This document shows positions 17,698-28,381 of a DNA stretch of 64,000 nucleotides, piece after piece. The stretch comes from an uncultured Eubacteriales bacterium (GTDB taxonomy: Bacteria > Bacillota > Clostridia > Oscillospirales > QAMX01), in assembly GCA_934546935.1 (NCBI GenBank), contig CAKTEH010000001.1:44460-108459 (forward strand), written 5' to 3'. The stretch's first letter is position 1; the number at the start of each line of letters is the position of its first letter. The translations under genes were made by a program, and so were the position numbers. A model generated the notes under the pieces. The model worked only from the letters and a program-made list of their open reading frames with translations, was not told the origin of the DNA and searched no databases.

Positions 17698-17723
17698 GCC
17701 AAAATCCCCCTTAAAAATGCTTA

Positions 17724-17769
17724 GGTACCTTGACATCATAGCACGCCGCCGGGTAAATGTCAAGGTACC
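17724..17769. promoter_or_regulatory. Candidate MarR operator: 13-bp perfect inverted repeat
   Basis: GGTACCTTGACAT (17724-17736) and ATGTCAAGGTACC (17757-17769), separated by 20 bp. It lies 27 bp upstream of the marR start codon. Confidence 0.45.
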
Positions 17770-17922
17770 GAACAAAACGGGAATACGGCCGCCCCGTTTG
17801 GAATCGACGGCGGCCACCCAAAGTATCTCCTTCTCAGGGATGCATATGCCAGAGGGAATAATAAAGGAATAAAAAACAATCCATATTGCAGAGTTCCTGT
17901 TGCGTAAGGATTTCTAAAAACC

Positions 17923-17978
17923 CAAAGCGCGGGCGCGCAGCAAACCGGGAAATCCGGATGCCGCGCGCCCGCGCTTTG
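17923..17978. other. Long GC-rich hairpin (16-bp perfect stem) of unknown function
   Basis: CAAAGCGCGGGCGCGC (17923-17938) pairs with GCGCGCCCGCGCTTTG (17963-17978). The loop contains a mini-hairpin CCGGgaaatCCGG. Confidence 0.6.
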
Positions 17979-18048
17979 TGCGGCGTTTGCCGCATATTCC
18001 CGCCTCGGGCGAAAAAAACCAAAATCCCCGTTTTTTTGCGCGGGGGTA

Positions 18049-18077
18049 TTGCTTTTTTTCAAAATATAAACTATAAT
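18049..18077 (+). promoter_or_regulatory. Near-consensus sigma-A promoter driving the non-coding repeat region
   Basis: TTGCTT, 17 nt, TATAAT. No credible ORF follows for ~880 nt. Confidence 0.55.
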
Positions 18078-18102
18078 ATTCCACATAGGAATGCGGATGC
18101 AT

Positions 18103-18229
18103 AAAAAAACGCGGCAGCCGGAAGAGCTGGAACCTCTCCCGGACCTGCACAAGTGTAAGGGCACCCATACAGCAGATTTTTCATCTGCGCCGCAAGGACA
18201 GTATACACGTTTTTTCCCTTTTTCGCAAG
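18103..18229 (+). repeat. Copy 1 of a ~126-nt structured non-coding repeat
   Basis: Aligns with 18548-18673. Contains hairpin CCGGAAGAG..CTCTCCCGG (18118-18142) and hairpin GCAGAT ttttc ATCTGC (18172-18188). Ends in a T-rich tract ACACGTTTTTTCCCTTTTTC. Confidence 0.7.
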
Positions 18230-18547
18230 CACATCTTCTATCCCGTAACCGGATTGCAACATGTTGGTTTTCCGGTACGTCGGCTTTTTGTTTGCTGTCT
18301 GTGCGTTTCTTTTTATGCCTTTTTCACACTGTGCGGAGAGTCTTCTTCCCTTTCTCTGGTTTTCAGGAGAGGAAAGAAGATGTTTGTCTGCGCGGTGTGT
18401 TTTTTATTTCCCGCTTTTCTCCGTTTTTAACGATTCAAAAAAATTCTTTTTTTCTCTTTCCCGCAAAAAAAGCGGGGGATCTTTCCGCACTCGGGAAAAG
18501 CATCCGCCGCTGCACTTCCTTTTTTTATCACTTTTCGGGAAAACAGA

Positions 18548-18673
18548 AAAAAAACACGGCAGCCCGGAAGAGCTGGAACCTCTTCCGGAGCCTGCGCAGG
18601 TGTAAGGGCACCTACACAGCAGACAAGTCTGCGCCGCGAGGGTAGTATACACGATTTTCCGCTTTTTCACAAG
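18548..18673 (+). repeat. Copy 2 of the ~126-nt structured non-coding repeat
   Basis: Lies 445 bp downstream of copy 1. Hairpin CCGGAAGAG..CTCTTCCGG (18564-18588, perfect here) and hairpin GCAGAC aa GTCTGC (18619-18632). The T->C and A->G changes relative to copy 1 keep the pairing. Stops occur in all frames across the two copies. Confidence 0.7.
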
Positions 18674-18963
18674 AGGGAGCGGCGAATTTTGTCGTACTTT
18701 TCCAACCGCGTGTGTGGTCAAAAAGGCGCTGTGTAGTGCGCGCGGCAGGTTTTTTATCCTGCCGCAATGCGCCTGCACAGTGTCTTTTCTGTTTTCTCCA
18801 AAGCCGCGCGGGGGAGGGGAGCCGGGCGCCGCCCGGCCTATCCCCCCCCCTGCAACGCCGAAGGAGAATAGACCGCCCCCACGCACGGGCGCCGGCGTCT
18901 GTCCGGCGTCCGGGATCAGGCACGCGGCCGCAGCGGCCCGTCCGGAAAGGACGCCAAAACGCA

Positions 18964-19521
18964 ATGAGTTTTTATCCAACTGCATTTCCAGGCCTTGCGC
19001 CTGCACGCTATCTTGATTATCTGAGTTTTGCCTGTGAGCGCGCGTTGTATGAAATTGCCTTTTCCCATGGCAACGCGGATATGGGCTGGCAGGAGTTTGT
19101 GCTTCTGCTGCGCAGCCAGGCGAAGCTGCGCACGGCTGCGCGCGCGGTAATCCGCCATGCGCTGCGCACCTGTCCGAGCGGCCAGCTCCATTTTGACAGC
19201 TTTGCGCTGGTAGATTTCTTCGGCCCGGATGCGCCGGAAACGCTGGAGGCGGCCCGGCTGTTTGACGAGAAGGAGGCCGGGCGCCTGCTTTTCCGTTTCC
19301 GCCAACGCTGTATGCAGGCGCAGTATGCGCTCCTGTATGCGCGCGACCCTGCCTATCGTGAGATAGATTATACCCGCGATGTCCAGCTTGACGAGATCGT
19401 GCGCGGACGTCTGCGCCATGGCTTTGAAGATGCGCTGCGCAGGTTCGATTTCAAGGCCCTGTGGGTCTGCGATGAAATCAAAGAAACCCGTTTCCTCTGG
19501 GACGATACGCCGCCGCAGTAA
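18964..19521 (+). CDS. Hypothetical protein (185 aa)
   Basis: ORF 18712..19521. The upstream 84 codons run through GC-rich hairpins, so I prefer the ATG at 18964 (MSFYPTAFPGLAPARYLDYL...). No recognisable motif. Confidence 0.5.
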   Translation: MSFYPTAFPGLAPARYLDYLSFACERALYEIAFSHGNADMGWQEFVLLLRSQAKLRTAARAVIRHALRTCPSGQLHFDSFALVDFFGPDAPETLEAARLFDEKEAGRLLFRFRQRCMQAQYALLYARDPAYREIDYTRDVQLDEIVRGRLRHGFEDALRRFDFKALWVCDEIKETRFLWDDTPPQ

Positions 19522-19650
19522 AGCCCCGGCGCCCTGCGGGGGCAAAAGCCGTACCCTGCGGCGTTCGGTTTCTGCAAGGGCGCTTCGCGGTACACAGCCG
19601 CGCCCCGTGGCGTTAAGCTTCTGCAAGAGCGCTTCGCGGCGCAGTGCCGC
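19431..19650 (+). repeat. 220-bp direct repeat, copy 1 (includes the last ~30 codons and stop of the hypothetical gene)
   Basis: Roughly 90% identical by eye to 21731-21950. It contains an internal duplicated motif, TTCTGCAAG(G/A)GCGCTTCGCGG. Confidence 0.85.
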
Positions 19651-19862
19651 GTTGCGTATCGGCGCTCTGCCTTTTGCGATGGTGTTTTGCCTGCTGTGCC
19701 GGCAGCCGTCCAGAGAGGGCAGGCGCTTTTTTCTTTGTAAAACTTCCCGCCTTAAATTGCAGCAGTGCGATAGATACAGTATAACAGAGCTGACGCCTAC
19801 TGCGCAGCCGGTTTGCTGCATACTGCCGGATTTTGCAAATATTCGCATTCTGGAAATATGCG

Positions 19863-19892
19863 AAAGGACGCGCCCGTGGGCGCGTCCTTTTT
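19863..19892. terminator. Bidirectional terminator downstream of the esterase gene
   Basis: AAAGGACGCGCCCgtGGGCGCGTCCTTTTT, 12 nt beyond the esterase stop. Confidence 0.75.
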
Positions 19893-19903
19893 AAACTATG
19901 TAC

Positions 19904-21448
19904 TTATTTGCGCCAGAGCTTGCCGGCCGCCGTCTTATAGAGGAAGTCGATGGCCGGGGAAAGCGCCGCCGGATCCATCTCGGCCTTCTCGCGGAAGGTA
20001 ATGCCGCGGGAATCGTCGCCCGTGAAAGGACGCCACGTGGGCATCGGCGTGCCGTCGGCGTCGGGGCCGTTCGGGTCGCCGGTTTTTGCAAAGTTCGTCC
20101 AGTAATTGCACATCTGGCGGGCCAGGTCGTAATGCTTGCCCGTGAAGGGACGCCAGCACTTGGCGAGCGTTTCAAACATGAACCACAGCTCGGAGGAGTG
20201 GAACGCGCCAGCGTTGTCGCCGCCGGGCATTTCGGGACCGAAGGAGTAGAAGTAGGCGGGCAGGCCCGCTTCTGCCGCGCGCATGGAGAAGAGCCGCGCG
20301 CCAAAGGCGGAGCCGTTGACGGTCGCGTTTTCCATCACGGCGGCCTCGTCCAGCTTGCCCTTGCCGCAAATCGACAGGAACTCATCCGCCGCGTCGCCCA
20401 GACGCGCGCGCACCATCGTCTCAAACTCCTCGTAGGTCTTGGCGGGGAACACATTGGCGAACTCGTCGTCCGTGTTGCCGATCATGACCGGAATCTGGAG
20501 ACGGCGGTTTTCGCAGAGCATCCGGTTCGGCTGGTCCGGCAGGAACGTGCCGTCCACGCACAGGCCCCAGCGATGGATGCCCGCGTTGCGGAACGCGCTT
20601 GCCTTATCGCGCAGGGTTTCCGCGTCGATCCGGCGCGCCTCCTCGAGCGTTTTTACGCCGAGATACTCGAAGAACTTCACGCCGGCCTGCTCGGCCTCCG
20701 CGAGCGTGGGATATTCGCCGCCGCGCACGCCGGTACCGAAGCTGATGCCGCCGCCGGACTGCGAAATGGCGTGGGTAATGCCGTTATTTTCGTTCAGAGG
20801 CGTGACGATTTGGCACAGCGTGCTGCGTCCGCCCGCAGACTGGCCGAACACGGTGATGTTGTCCGGATCGCCGCCGAAGTTTGTGATGTTGCGGCGCACC
20901 CAGTCGATGCCGGCCTTCTGGTCGTAGAGGCCGAAGTTTGCACAGTTCACGCCGCCATTTTCCGCCGTAATTTCCGGATGCGCAAGGAAGCCGAACGCGT
21001 TGATGCGGTAGTTGACGCTGACGAGCACGACGCCGCGGCGCGCGATGCGCTCGCCGTCGAACTCCATCTCGGACGGGTGGCCCCAGTTGAGCCCGCCGCC
21101 GTAAATCCACACCATGACGGGCAGGCGCTCGTCAGCCGACTTTGCGGGCGTCCAGACGTTTAACTGAAGGCAGTCCTCGCTCATCACGGCCATTTCGTCG
21201 CGCGCGGGGTCGTTGTGCCACTCCTTGTCGTAGAAACCGCCGCCGCTGGGGATGTCCTGCATGGCGATGGCGCCAAAGCGGAAGCAGTCGCGCACGCCCT
21301 CCCAGTTTGCAGCGGGCTGCGGGACGCGCCAGCGGTTGCGTCCGACCGGCGGCGCGGCGAAGGGGATGCCCTTAAACGCGGTGATAAACGTATCGGCGGC
21401 CGGCAGGCCGCGTACCATACCGTTTTCTGTTTTTGTAACACGAAGCAT
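19904..21448 (-). CDS. Type-B carboxylesterase (para-nitrobenzyl esterase-like)
   Basis: 514 aa. LPVMVWIYGGGL (oxyanion hole), FGQSAGG (GxSxG nucleophile elbow), EDCLQLNVW. Confidence 0.9.
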   Translation of the reverse strand: MLRVTKTENGMVRGLPAADTFITAFKGIPFAAPPVGRNRWRVPQPAANWEGVRDCFRFGAIAMQDIPSGGGFYDKEWHNDPARDEMAVMSEDCLQLNVWTPAKSADERLPVMVWIYGGGLNWGHPSEMEFDGERIARRGVVLVSVNYRINAFGFLAHPEITAENGGVNCANFGLYDQKAGIDWVRRNITNFGGDPDNITVFGQSAGGRSTLCQIVTPLNENNGITHAISQSGGGISFGTGVRGGEYPTLAEAEQAGVKFFEYLGVKTLEEARRIDAETLRDKASAFRNAGIHRWGLCVDGTFLPDQPNRMLCENRRLQIPVMIGNTDDEFANVFPAKTYEEFETMVRARLGDAADEFLSICGKGKLDEAAVMENATVNGSAFGARLFSMRAAEAGLPAYFYSFGPEMPGGDNAGAFHSSELWFMFETLAKCWRPFTGKHYDLARQMCNYWTNFAKTGDPNGPDADGTPMPTWRPFTGDDSRGITFREKAEMDPAALSPAIDFLYKTAAGKLWRK

Positions 21449-21730
21449 AAAATTGACCCTTCCTTATTCGATTTATTTGTGTAAATTTATGATATCGTGT
21501 CTTCTTTCTCTTGTCAATAGAAAATGAACCGGAAATCTATGAAGAAAGTTATGAAAAGCAGTGTGCGTATCGTATAATTGGAAAAGCGAATGCACAGATG
21601 GATTTGATATAGAAAGGGAATTTTCTTGATCCATATCAAAGAAAAACTTTCCATGCCGGTGTATTTCTCCTGGAATTTGGAACCACAACCGGCCGTCTTG
21701 CTGGCGCCGCTGTGGCATGTGGTGGCGTGG

Positions 21731-21950
21731 ATGTCTGCGCAGGTTCGATTTTAAGGCCCTGCGGGTCTGCGATGAAATCAAAGAAACCCGTTTCCTCTGG
21801 GACGATACGCCGCCGCAGTAAAGCCCCAGCGCTCTGCGGCGGCAAAACGCCGTACCCTGCGGCGTTCGGTTTCTGCAAGGGCGCTTCGCGGTACACAGCC
21901 GCGCCCCGTAGTGTTAAGCTTCTGCAAGAACTTCCACGGCGCAGTGCCGC
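21731..21950 (+). repeat. 220-bp direct repeat, copy 2 (orphan 3' gene fragment)
   Basis: Exactly 2300 bp downstream of copy 1. It encodes ...RFDFKALRVCDEIKETRFLWDDTPPQ* with no upstream coding continuation. Confidence 0.85.
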
Positions 21951-22449
21951 TTGCCATCCCGTGCAGAAGGGTGGTATAGATTTGCAATATGCAAGTGATT
22001 TGCAGATGAAAATTCTTGCATACTGCAATATTGTCCTGCATATAATTTGCTTAATGCAAATACTATGCTTTTTTTCACTGGATACCTCCAAAATCCGGAA
22101 GTATCCTTCCTTTTCCCATTTGTGAATCCGATTAATAAATTGTGAAATGCAAATATTGATGTTTGCATTTGCATTTTGCAATTAACTTTCTGCCGTGCTT
22201 TCACAAGATGTTTTCGTACCAAAGCTGTGATTTTCCCCGCGCCGGCGCTTTCTTCATTGCTGGCAGAGGATTGCCTGGCGTCTTTATCTCTTGCCGCAGA
22301 TGCAGTATCCAGCCGGATGGCCCCGGCATCCCGCCTTTTATTTGCCTGCCCTGCCTTTCACGCCGCTTTCACCATGGTGTACCTGCCATATAGAAATCCC
22401 CATCCCCGTCCATATCTTCTGCTGCGACTGCTGCGGCGTTGTGGACGGC

Positions 22450-22488
22450 AAAAAAAAGCGTTTCTGTCCGTCGGACAGAAACGCTTTT
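22450..22488 (-). terminator. Rho-independent terminator of the pncB-cysK-cysE operon
   Basis: On the minus strand: AAAAGCGTTTCTGTCCGaCGGACAGAAACGCTTTTTTTT, 18 nt after the cysE stop. Confidence 0.8.
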
Positions 22489-28166: not shown

Positions 28167-28256
28167 TGGCGGAGAAGGAGGGAATCGAACCCTCGCGCCG
28201 CTTTCGCGACCTACTCCCTTAGCAGGGGAGCCCCGTCACCGCTTGGGTACTTCTCC
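28167..28256 (-). tRNA. tRNA-Ser (anticodon GCU), CCA encoded
   Basis: The reverse complement folds by hand. Acceptor GGAGAAG/CTTCTCC; anticodon stem CTCCC/GGGAG with loop CTGCTAA; long variable arm; T-arm GAGGG TTCGATT CCCTC; 3' GCCA. Confidence 0.9.
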
Positions 28257-28292
28257 GTATTTTTTATCGTTGCTATGGCTGCTGTTAAAAGC

Positions 28293-28381
28293 TGGCGGAG
28301 AGAGAGGGATTCGAACCCCCGGCCCCTTGCGGAGTCACTGGTTTTCAAGACCAGCTCCATAAACCACTCGGACATCTCTCC
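28293..28381 (-). tRNA. tRNA-Ser (anticodon UGA), CCA encoded
   Basis: Acceptor GGAGAGA/TCTCTCC; anticodon stem CTGGT/ACCAG with loop CTTGAAA; long variable arm; T-loop TTCGAAT; 3' GCCA. Confidence 0.9.

Follow-up and report, generated by a model that had tools for sequence, protein, structure and literature searches.

Between the gene marR and an orphan open reading frame (ORF) at position 18964, the 64-kb stretch of DNA analyzed here (the window, to whose positions all coordinates refer) carries two homologous modules, and the question raised by this locus is what these modules specify and on which strand. A first-pass annotation of the sequence had offered two kinds of reading: control of the downstream gene in cis, by a long structured leader or by tandem regulatory elements, or one or two independent non-coding RNAs, small or large. 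Our analysis favors the small RNAs: with a probability of roughly 55%, the modules are sibling small-RNA (sRNA) genes on the minus strand, belonging to no classified family. Among strains of this uncultured gut Firmicute, the part of the predicted RNAs that differs is a single apical loop.

Anatomy and strand of the two modules

The modules, originally drawn at 18103-18229 and 18548-18673, proved to be homologous as had been claimed. They were 83% identical over a wider alignment of 190 columns, a divergence of ~17% that falls to ~10% over the predicted RNA of ~90 nucleotides (nt), and a 25-nt core occurred twice in the window against 0 matches expected. A repeat search and covariance model R1 placed the number of copies at 2 within the 64 kb and 0 in the other, non-strain loci that were fetched. 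Homology between the copies spanned the sequence from the minus-strand -35 hexamer to the U-run, with no alignment past either end, which suggests that the duplicated unit was one promoter-to-terminator gene. The predicted parts of the two units are as follows.

18104..18228, minus strand: predicted sRNA gene 1, full transcription unit (promoter scan, fold, pair counts, R1)
18228-18223, minus strand: -35 element TTGCGA of gene 1 (promoter scan)
18205-18200, minus strand: -10 element TATACT of gene 1 (promoter scan)
18193 to 18104, minus strand: predicted RNA of gene 1, ~90 nt, starting at G18193 (fold and promoter position); stems P1 GCGGC/GCCGC, P2 GCAGAU/AUCUGC, P3 UGUAUGGGUG/CACUUGUGCA and P4 CCGGGAGAG/CUCUUCCGG
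18110-18104, minus strand: U7 tail of gene 1
18548..18672, minus strand: predicted sRNA gene 2, paralogue of gene 1 (promoter scan, fold, pair counts, R1)
18672-18667, minus strand: -35 element TTGTGA of gene 2 (promoter scan)
18649-18644, minus strand: -10 element TATACT of gene 2 (promoter scan)
18637 to 18548, minus strand: predicted RNA of gene 2, ~90 nt, starting at G18637; four-way junction as in gene 1 and U8 tail
18127..18133, minus strand: P4 loop GUUCCAG of copy 1 (equivalent in copy 2, 18573-18579), invariant in both copies and all strains

In both genes the predicted promoter hexamers were separated by 17 nt (TTGCGA/TTGTGA-17-TATACT). The promoter scan called 3 sites, compared with 0.9 in shuffled sequences; two of these belong to the predicted sRNA genes and the third is marR's own promoter. 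The -10 was the same in both copies, which differed at 1 of 12 hexamer positions, compared with 6 of 23 positions of the spacer plus discriminator. Stem P1 opens with a G located 7 bases past each -10, so that the predicted transcript would consist of exactly the junction and the U-tail. By consensus match, each structured RNA is thus preceded by a correctly spaced promoter of its own, as is expected of an sRNA gene.

The predicted minus-strand fold was a closed four-way junction, in which P1 encloses P2, P3 (10 bp with a 6-nt loop) and P4 (9-11 bp with the loop GUUCCAG) and is followed by U7-8. P1 directly abuts this tail and closes a branched structure, not a simple hairpin. The 90-nt minus-strand folds of copies 1 and 2 reached -44.4 and -49.0 kcal/mol (z -4.47 and -5.31), compared with -29.8 and -38.4 kcal/mol (z -2.2 and -3.4) on the plus strand. 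On the minus strand, the minimum free energy (MFE) structure coincided with the centroid and made up 34-37% of the ensemble (37% for copy 1). The hairpin CCGGAAGAG/CTCT(C/T)CCGG, which the first-pass annotation had pointed out in each module, was present.

Base pairing was preserved throughout. All 33 pairs were standard in both copies and in all 6 distinct sequences, compared with 32-57% when the partners were slid by 1-3 columns. The copies were separated by 9 stem substitutions, each of which kept pairing; among the 7 pairs that varied, 2 had changed on both sides, 5 had changed on one side via G.U, and none was disrupted. The double changes were U-A to C-G in P2, which is the compensatory change already described as GCAGAT/ATCTGC versus GCAGAC/GTCTGC, and a second one, A-U to G-C, in P3. 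G.U pairs numbered 7 in copy 1 and 4 in copy 2; the plus strand folds worse because these pairs become A.C mismatches there. Across loci, R1 gave 30 matches that reduced to 6 distinct sequences, 6/6 of them fully paired, with scores of 108.5 bits for gene 1, 113 bits for gene 2 and 100-113 bits for true copies overall. The strain variants thus kept all pairs; the sister species lacked the modules. Collectively, the pairing pattern gives good support to the structure and to the strand, short of proof.

On the evidence of the fold, the G.U asymmetry, the promoters, the U-tails and the homology limits, we assign the modules to the minus strand. The T-rich tract that had been read as the end of each module corresponds on this strand to the promoter spacer, and the A-run at the opposite end to the U-tail. 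Thus, of the earlier proposal of one or two independent small RNAs, the RNAs are favored and the plus strand that it assumed is not.

Alleles of the P3 loop and their possible target

Strain-variant loci (handles beginning with L) were recovered from independent samples by a protein search with a spurious plus-strand ORF as the query, and showed a background divergence of 0.2-1%. Among these strains the whole unit, including its promoter, was invariant save for the P3 apical loop, with 0 changes in the scaffold. The loop had been replaced en bloc (6/6, 7-nt and 8-nt blocks), and its alleles were distributed as follows.

18156..18161, minus strand: P3 apical loop of copy 1; CCCUUA in the window, ACUAGC in L092/L093, CCCUGGUU in L095/L096
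18603..18608, minus strand: P3 apical loop of copy 2; CCCUUA in the window, CCUGGAU in L089-L091 and L095/L096
Copy 1 CCCUUA with copy 2 CCCUUA: the window, L001, L002, L094 and L099-L101
Copy 1 CCCUUA with copy 2 CCUGGAU: L089-L091
Copy 1 ACUAGC with copy 2 CCCUUA: L092/L093 (two independent projects)
Copy 1 CCCUGGUU with copy 2 CCUGGAU: L095/L096
Copy 2 alone present in the sequence, with the allele CCCUUA: L097/L098

The concentration of change in the loop was most evident in L095, in which 7 of the 30 differing positions over 5.6 kb fell in or beside 12 loop bases (Fisher p ~3e-12). The CCCUGGUU allele was accompanied by an adjoining change from G.U to G-C. All four alleles (CCCUUA, ACUAGC, CCCUGGUU and CCUGGAU) contained C-U-N-R, for which the rough chance expectation is ~0.002-0.008; YUNR, a U-turn-type sequence, is a motif of antisense recognition loops. 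In the reference strain CCCUUA was common to both paralogues despite their ~17% divergence, which suggests long-term constraint on the loop, broken by abrupt switches, and not simply free drift. An allele-specific P3 loop with C-U-N-R on an invariant scaffold is the arrangement expected of a kissing-loop antisense RNA.

These observations are consistent with a mechanism that we hold to be less certain than the reading of the modules as sRNA genes. Each gene would be self-contained, with a sigma-70-type promoter, a start at the first base of P1, an RNA of ~90 nt and a U7-8 tail. The constant four-way-junction scaffold would present the 6-8-nt apical loop of P3 as the specificity element, which always displays C-U-N-R and is exchanged en bloc between strains, and through this loop the sRNAs would pair with a target by the same logic as FinP alleles, CopA, ColE1 RNA I and Sib. 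A possible target is a plus-strand transcript from the following element, which might serve the orphan ORF at 18964 as a long leader; a distal or foreign target is equally likely.

18049..18077, plus strand: candidate convergent promoter TTGCTT-17-TATAAT, in all strains, with one single-nucleotide polymorphism (SNP) in the spacer in L089-91

This sequence had been put forward as a consensus promoter. The sequence is there and its -10 is perfect, but the -35 matches at only 3/6 positions, and for that reason the site was not called by our scan; nor did the scan find another plus-strand promoter upstream of 18964. If active, the promoter would yield a transcript fully complementary to sRNA1, and to sRNA2 on read-through. 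Transcription of the RNAs, pairing of the loop with a target and the identity of that target are steps that we infer.

Candidate targets were sought near the locus and across the window. CCCUUA is complementary to the marR Shine-Dalgarno (SD) sequence UAAGGG at 17713; this site was not adopted as the target, since it was unchanged in L089 and L095, the latter a strain in which both loops had switched. When the P3 and P4 tops were scanned for duplexes with 159 start regions of the window, nothing stood out.

Several observations weigh against P3-directed sRNA genes. A shuffle control for covariation with two copies was not significant (123/500), and the covariation rests essentially on two lineages, copy 1 and copy 2. 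A 5-6-bp P1 that closes a branched fold differs from a textbook intrinsic terminator. Trans-acting sRNAs usually show their strongest conservation, and not their greatest variability, in the seed. No module homologue was detected outside one uncultured species, a weak negative in that the scans used the variable P3 loop. Finally, no partner site co-varying with the loop swaps was found within ~3 kb. Given that no second site nearby had changed, the simplest target would be the complementary plus-strand transcript from 18049-18077, because a target encoded in cis changes along with the loop. We regard this cis-target step as rather unlikely because the -35 of its promoter is weak, no plus-strand promoter accompanies copy 2, and the strand facing the sRNAs carries no conserved ORF; these three points count against the wider reading as well.

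A bolder interpretation of the alleles is that the P3 loop is an "address", either under diversifying selection in self/non-self RNA recognition (RNA-only exclusion, immunity or kin discrimination, borne on a small islet) or rewritten by a dedicated mechanism. In both versions the constant four-way junction would carry a re-programmable code of 6-8 nt. This interpretation would explain the replacement of 6-8 contiguous bases at least 3-4 independent times at 0.2-1% divergence, and we consider it speculative and improbable.

Other explanations and the genomic setting

An alternative explanation is that a plus-strand RNA arises from 18049-18077 and that the modules are tandem cis-regulatory elements or part of a ~900-nt leader for the ORF at 18964. 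The features that bear on it are listed below.

18680..18963, plus strand: GC-rich, very stable structure that immediately precedes the orphan ORF (18964)
18229..18547, no strand assigned: spacer between the sRNA genes, dispensable and fast-evolving

The perfect -10 of TTGCTT-17-TATAAT, as the sole plus-strand candidate before 18964, fits such a leader, as do the capacity of the whole leader to fold end to end, the plus-strand z of -9.4 for 18680-18963, and a helix over the region before the ATG. However, the module stems would contain 7 and 4 A.C mismatches on the plus strand and fold 10-15 kcal/mol worse, the T-tract of the module lies 17 nt past the closing stem and is therefore no terminator, and the next 157-230 nt are deleted or swapped in strains. 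The downstream ORF is under relaxed constraint, and no riboswitch or leader family was matched. A riboswitch or cis-regulatory leader was rejected on the same weaker plus-strand fold and because the structure lies on the strand opposite to the downstream gene, and a riboswitch expression platform on the distance of the T-run and the dispensability of the sequence that follows it. The original proposal of a long leader or tandem cis-regulatory elements is not supported, since the G.U pattern, promoters, U-tails and homology limits are all those of the minus strand; moreover, the copies are separated by 240 nt that strains may replace or lose, and 18680-18963 alone is leader-like on the plus strand. 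We therefore judge a leader containing the modules to be improbable.

Searches for known RNA families gave no support to a leader or to any other class. The earlier reader's failure to match a riboswitch was borne out by Rfam 15, which for this region, including the models for ROOL, GOLLD and raiA, returned no match at gathering thresholds and none that was meaningful at E<=10. The modules were unmatched at gathering over the whole window; only far-sub-threshold microRNA- and small-nucleolar-RNA-type matches were seen for 17700-19100 at E<=10; and each module alone (106-nt stretches, E<=10) reached at best 17 bits against a threshold of 96, with C4 unmatched. ARAGORN found no tRNA or transfer-messenger RNA. 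The sole gathering-level Rfam matches in the window were two tRNA genes on the minus strand at 28170-28381. Candidates for a tRNA-like element, hammerhead, integron attC site, tandem interspaced guide RNA (TIGR) or bridge RNA, retron or diversity-generating retroelement were rejected, as defining motifs or partner genes were lacking.

The structure at 18680-18963 behaves like a leader element of the orphan ORF in its own right, apart from the modules. Its predicted fold reached -166.9 kcal/mol, with a z of -9.36 on the plus strand and -4.65 on the minus strand, and in the plus-strand fold a long-range helix (18697-18703 with 18944-18950) covered the purine-rich stretch before the ATG. It contains the G-run/C-run stem noted previously, here located at 18808-18853. 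Five strain SNPs fell within its stems, 3 of them C>U opposite G and 2 pair-breaking. The orphan ORF itself (18964-19521, 185 amino acids) formed one cluster in 5.8 billion and was without a homologue outside the species; PDB, Pfam, NCBIfam, PHROGs and PADLOC yielded no match, and its AlphaFold model was unusable (pLDDT, the per-residue confidence score, 43). Gene callers differ on its start (185 or 146 amino acids). Between strains it showed 4 nonsynonymous versus 2 synonymous SNPs, with a frameshift in L089. This weakly constrained ORF may not be a functional protein gene. Separately, 18086-18110 and 18967-18989, which lie just past the 3' end of sRNA gene 1 and in the first codons of the orphan ORF, were imperfect reverse complements (GGAAUGCGG/CUGCAUUUC and AUAAAAA/UUUUUAU), and in the MFE fold of a full-length plus-strand transcript the 5' end would pair with the orphan start region; the complementarity could be chance.

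Coding potential within the modules and spacer was also considered. The statement that no credible ORF lies here holds in that reading frames are not kept between strains, even though gene callers do annotate 182 amino acids on the plus strand across both modules and 53 amino acids on the minus strand over the GC hairpin at 17923-17978. The 182-residue product was 68% identical between strains at 98.3% DNA identity, and the copies differ by non-triplet indels, in agreement with the earlier conclusion that the modules are non-coding. The plus-strand ORF from the ATG at 18097 measured 182, 167, 160 or ~68 amino acids depending on the strain, with shifts of frame and, in some strains, a stop after ~68 codons. 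Plus-strand ORFs stay open in any frame because the strand is A-poor, and their products had no Pfam, NCBIfam, PHROG or PADLOC match. A protein-coding gene, live or decayed, was rejected, since neither frame nor amino-acid sequence is conserved between copies and strains. A HMMER search of the minus-frame translation against 1.8 billion representatives returned the same locus and one further protein, P0150, which was judged spurious because its implied sequence would break P3. P0150 is a predicted protein of 130 amino acids with four tandem 23-residue Pro/Ala-rich repeats (DLLYPRPETCSTPGQRPALPQAR) and an E value of 5e-6 to the minus frame of module 1, judged from the protein alone.

The spacer has been rearranged repeatedly. 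L092/L093 carry an unrelated 230 nt in place of 18264-18388, L094 has a 157-nt deletion at ~18347-18503 with both sRNA genes intact, and L089-91 show a cluster of SNPs and 1-nt indels. The breakpoints (18264, 18388, 18347 and 18503) fall outside the modules, which argues against cassette exchange at repeats.

These rearrangements bear on a second alternative, a type I toxin-antitoxin-like system or a plasmid/phage-type countertranscript, in which the minus-strand RNAs would repress a plus-strand gene and the loop alleles would avert cross-talk. Candidate genes exist: the ORF at ATG 18097 is preceded by AGGAA 6 nt upstream, and a 16-amino-acid hydrophobic ORF at 18381 lies behind GGAGAGG, a strong SD that is sequestered in a hairpin at 18325-18399. 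The plus-strand promoter is convergent with sRNA gene 1, the predicted pairing of sRNA1 with the 18097 ORF begins at codon 3, the islet is absent from a sister species as many such modules are, and allele-specific loops are typical of such systems. Nevertheless, no plus-strand ORF is conserved; the 18097 ORF shifts frame and its conserved N-terminus is hydrophilic, while the 18381 ORF is swapped out in L092/93 and deleted in L094, with both sRNA genes intact. A type I toxin-antitoxin pair was rejected on this ground, that plus-strand ORFs shift frame, or are exchanged or missing, in strains where both sRNA genes are retained. Domain and library scans around the locus detected no replication, transfer, phage or defense protein, and a BLAST search of phages and plasmids with the 1.1 kb gave no match. 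We give this alternative little credence.

A non-functional relic, in which duplicated, acquired DNA folds by chance and the loop changes are hairpin mutation artifacts such as template switching at quasi-palindromes, would suit a fast-changing islet in one species only. Block substitution is a recognized type of mutation at hairpins, and CUGG(A), found in two alleles, is complementary to the neighboring P4 loop and could be a templated mutation. Against decay, copies that have diverged by ~17% keep all pairs, promoter hexamers, U-tails and identical P3 and P4 loops while the spacer decays freely, and no new loop is the reverse complement of an old one. We judge a relic to be improbable.

A DNA-level element (protein or recombinase sites, an origin-like structure or mobile-element remains, with P3 as inverted arms round a variable spacer) is very improbable: P3 does resemble 10-bp imperfect inverted arms round a 6-8-bp variable core, and the locus is inserted relative to a sister species near a 195-219-bp direct repeat that flanks a gene present or absent by strain, but the wobble pattern is strand-specific as expected of RNA and not of duplex DNA, the promoter and U-tail limits account for the unit, strain breakpoints fall outside the modules, the neighborhood has no recombinase, transposase or Rep, and the copies number only 2 in 64 kb. 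For dispersed repeats such as miniature inverted-repeat transposable elements (MITEs) or repetitive extragenic palindromic (REP) sequences, which would occur in many copies per genome with terminal inverted repeats or target duplications, the count covered the 64-kb window (2 copies) and the other fetched loci (0).

Downstream of the predicted sRNA genes on the minus strand, toward marR, lie further structured elements.

17912..18047, minus strand: two terminator-like elements, each a hairpin plus T-run, lying past sRNA gene 1 in the direction of marR

On the minus strand these comprise 18047-18024 followed by TTTTGGTTTTTTT and 17978-17923 followed by GGGTTTTT; the hairpin at 18024-18047 is terminator-like on the plus strand as well. 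The second is the GC hairpin described previously, which was confirmed with 20-nt arms that are 95% complementary. Two similar hairpins with 7-nt homopolymer loops were also seen in opposite orientation, CCCCG-T7-GCGCGGGG at 18026-18045 and CCCGC-A7-GCGGGGG at 18460-18478; each lies ~60-90 nt downstream, on the minus strand, of one sRNA gene, and that at 18460-18478 is lost in L094.

At 17721-17772, a 16-nt inverted repeat (TTAGGTACCTTGACAT/ATGTCAAGGTACCGAA, 94% complementary) overlaps the marR promoter TTGACA-17-TATGAT, and this region is the sole part of the intergenic region kept in sister species L007-L009. Since it overlaps the promoter and alone is conserved there, the repeat is probably the MarR autoregulatory operator; the operator half-site was not found near the sRNA promoters. 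A strong SD-like sequence (GAAGGAGA, within 17817-17835) stands 7-8 nt before a GTG, the gene-caller start of marR (221 amino acids). The N-terminal extension from this GTG is probably not real, unless upstream read-through uses it, because the GTG lies upstream of the marR promoter and the start in relatives is close to the ATG at 17700.

The wider locus was compared with that of the sister species, in which marR was 78-83% identical, the flanks were ~85% identical in DNA and the marR operator and promoter (17705-17776) were kept. Window positions 17777-22450 (4.67 kb) occupy the place of 265 bp in sister-species locus L007. By this comparison, 17777-22450 is a species-specific islet comprising the sRNA genes, the orphan ORF, a carboxylesterase gene and flanks. 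GC content was 59-64% at 19-21 kb versus ~52% around it. Copies of a direct repeat of ~195-219 bp (19435-19628 and 21735-21929, 96% identical) lie on either side of the carboxylesterase gene (19904-21448, minus strand); the repeat takes in the final 87 nt of the orphan ORF and contains a 49-nt tandem. Strain L002 has one copy of the repeat and no carboxylesterase gene, which fits insertion or deletion by repeat recombination.

Homologues of the modules were sought with a two-loop pattern, GCTGGAACCYY-N12-24-GTAAGGGCAC, which gave 4 matches in GTDB genomes, 6 in JGI metagenomes and 0 in IMG/VR, and with a P4 15-mer, which gave 70 matches in IMG/VR. The GTDB and JGI matches were dismissed as chance because none was recovered at E<=10 with R1, and those in IMG/VR because they reached <=22 bits compared with 100-113 for true copies. 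The two-loop scans are weak because the pattern contained the hypervariable P3 loop.

Comparison with known RNA regulators

If the modules are sRNA genes, the kind of regulator is known, and its form and setting are unusual. If expressed, the RNAs would represent an sRNA family, as yet unclassified, of an uncultured gut Firmicute, and a rare case of chromosomal allele switching, which has been described before mainly for plasmid antisense RNAs. Their natural alleles would narrow the specificity determinant to one loop and so provide a ready-made RNA-recognition experiment. The locus also illustrates that G.U asymmetry and homology limits, used as strand tests, can overturn a plausible "structured leader" reading.

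FinP, CopA/CopT (R1) and RNA I/RNA II (ColE1) are systems of small structured RNAs with their own promoter and terminator that seed on the target through apical loops. The modules resemble them in being predicted small structured RNAs with their own predicted promoter and terminator, YUNR-type loops, and constant stems with differing loops. In contrast to these RNAs, the modules are chromosomal, in a Clostridia-like gut bacterium, and each is predicted to form a closed four-way junction and not two or three independent hairpins, in two tandem copies. The module locus has neither tra nor rep nor any other conserved target gene, its sense transcript is putative, and FinP, CopA and RNA I share no sequence or covariance-model similarity with the modules. 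Kissing-loop seeding and the finP alleles have been described (PMC9977716); in a passage of that source citing Finlay 1986, the alleles keep their stems and differ in their loops, which set specificity.

In the tandem cis-encoded Sib RNAs, short variable regions tell cognate from non-cognate targets (PMC2943612). The modules share with Sib/Ibs of E. coli the tandem paralogous sRNA genes and the short variable regions. However, Sib RNAs overlap conserved toxin ORFs of 18-19 amino acids, whereas no conserved ORF faces the modules and the sequence that separates the copies is dispensable.

The c4 RNA of phages P1/P7 and the CI RNA of P4 are cloverleaf-like RNAs of ~70-90 nt with a 5'/3' closing stem and loop-target pairing, in which loop differences lead to hetero-immunity. 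The modules are similar in their length of ~90 nt, their closing stem and their loop differences. Unlike c4, they lack a phage context, no co-varying downstream target sites were found for them, and each has its own predicted promoter and would not be processed from a leader. The RoxS/RsaE and LhrC families of Firmicutes likewise comprise several paralogues under separate promoters and terminators, and CCCUUA, the loop of the reference strain, is anti-Shine-Dalgarno-like as in those families. There, however, the C-rich seed is conserved, whereas in the modules the loop is the part that varies.

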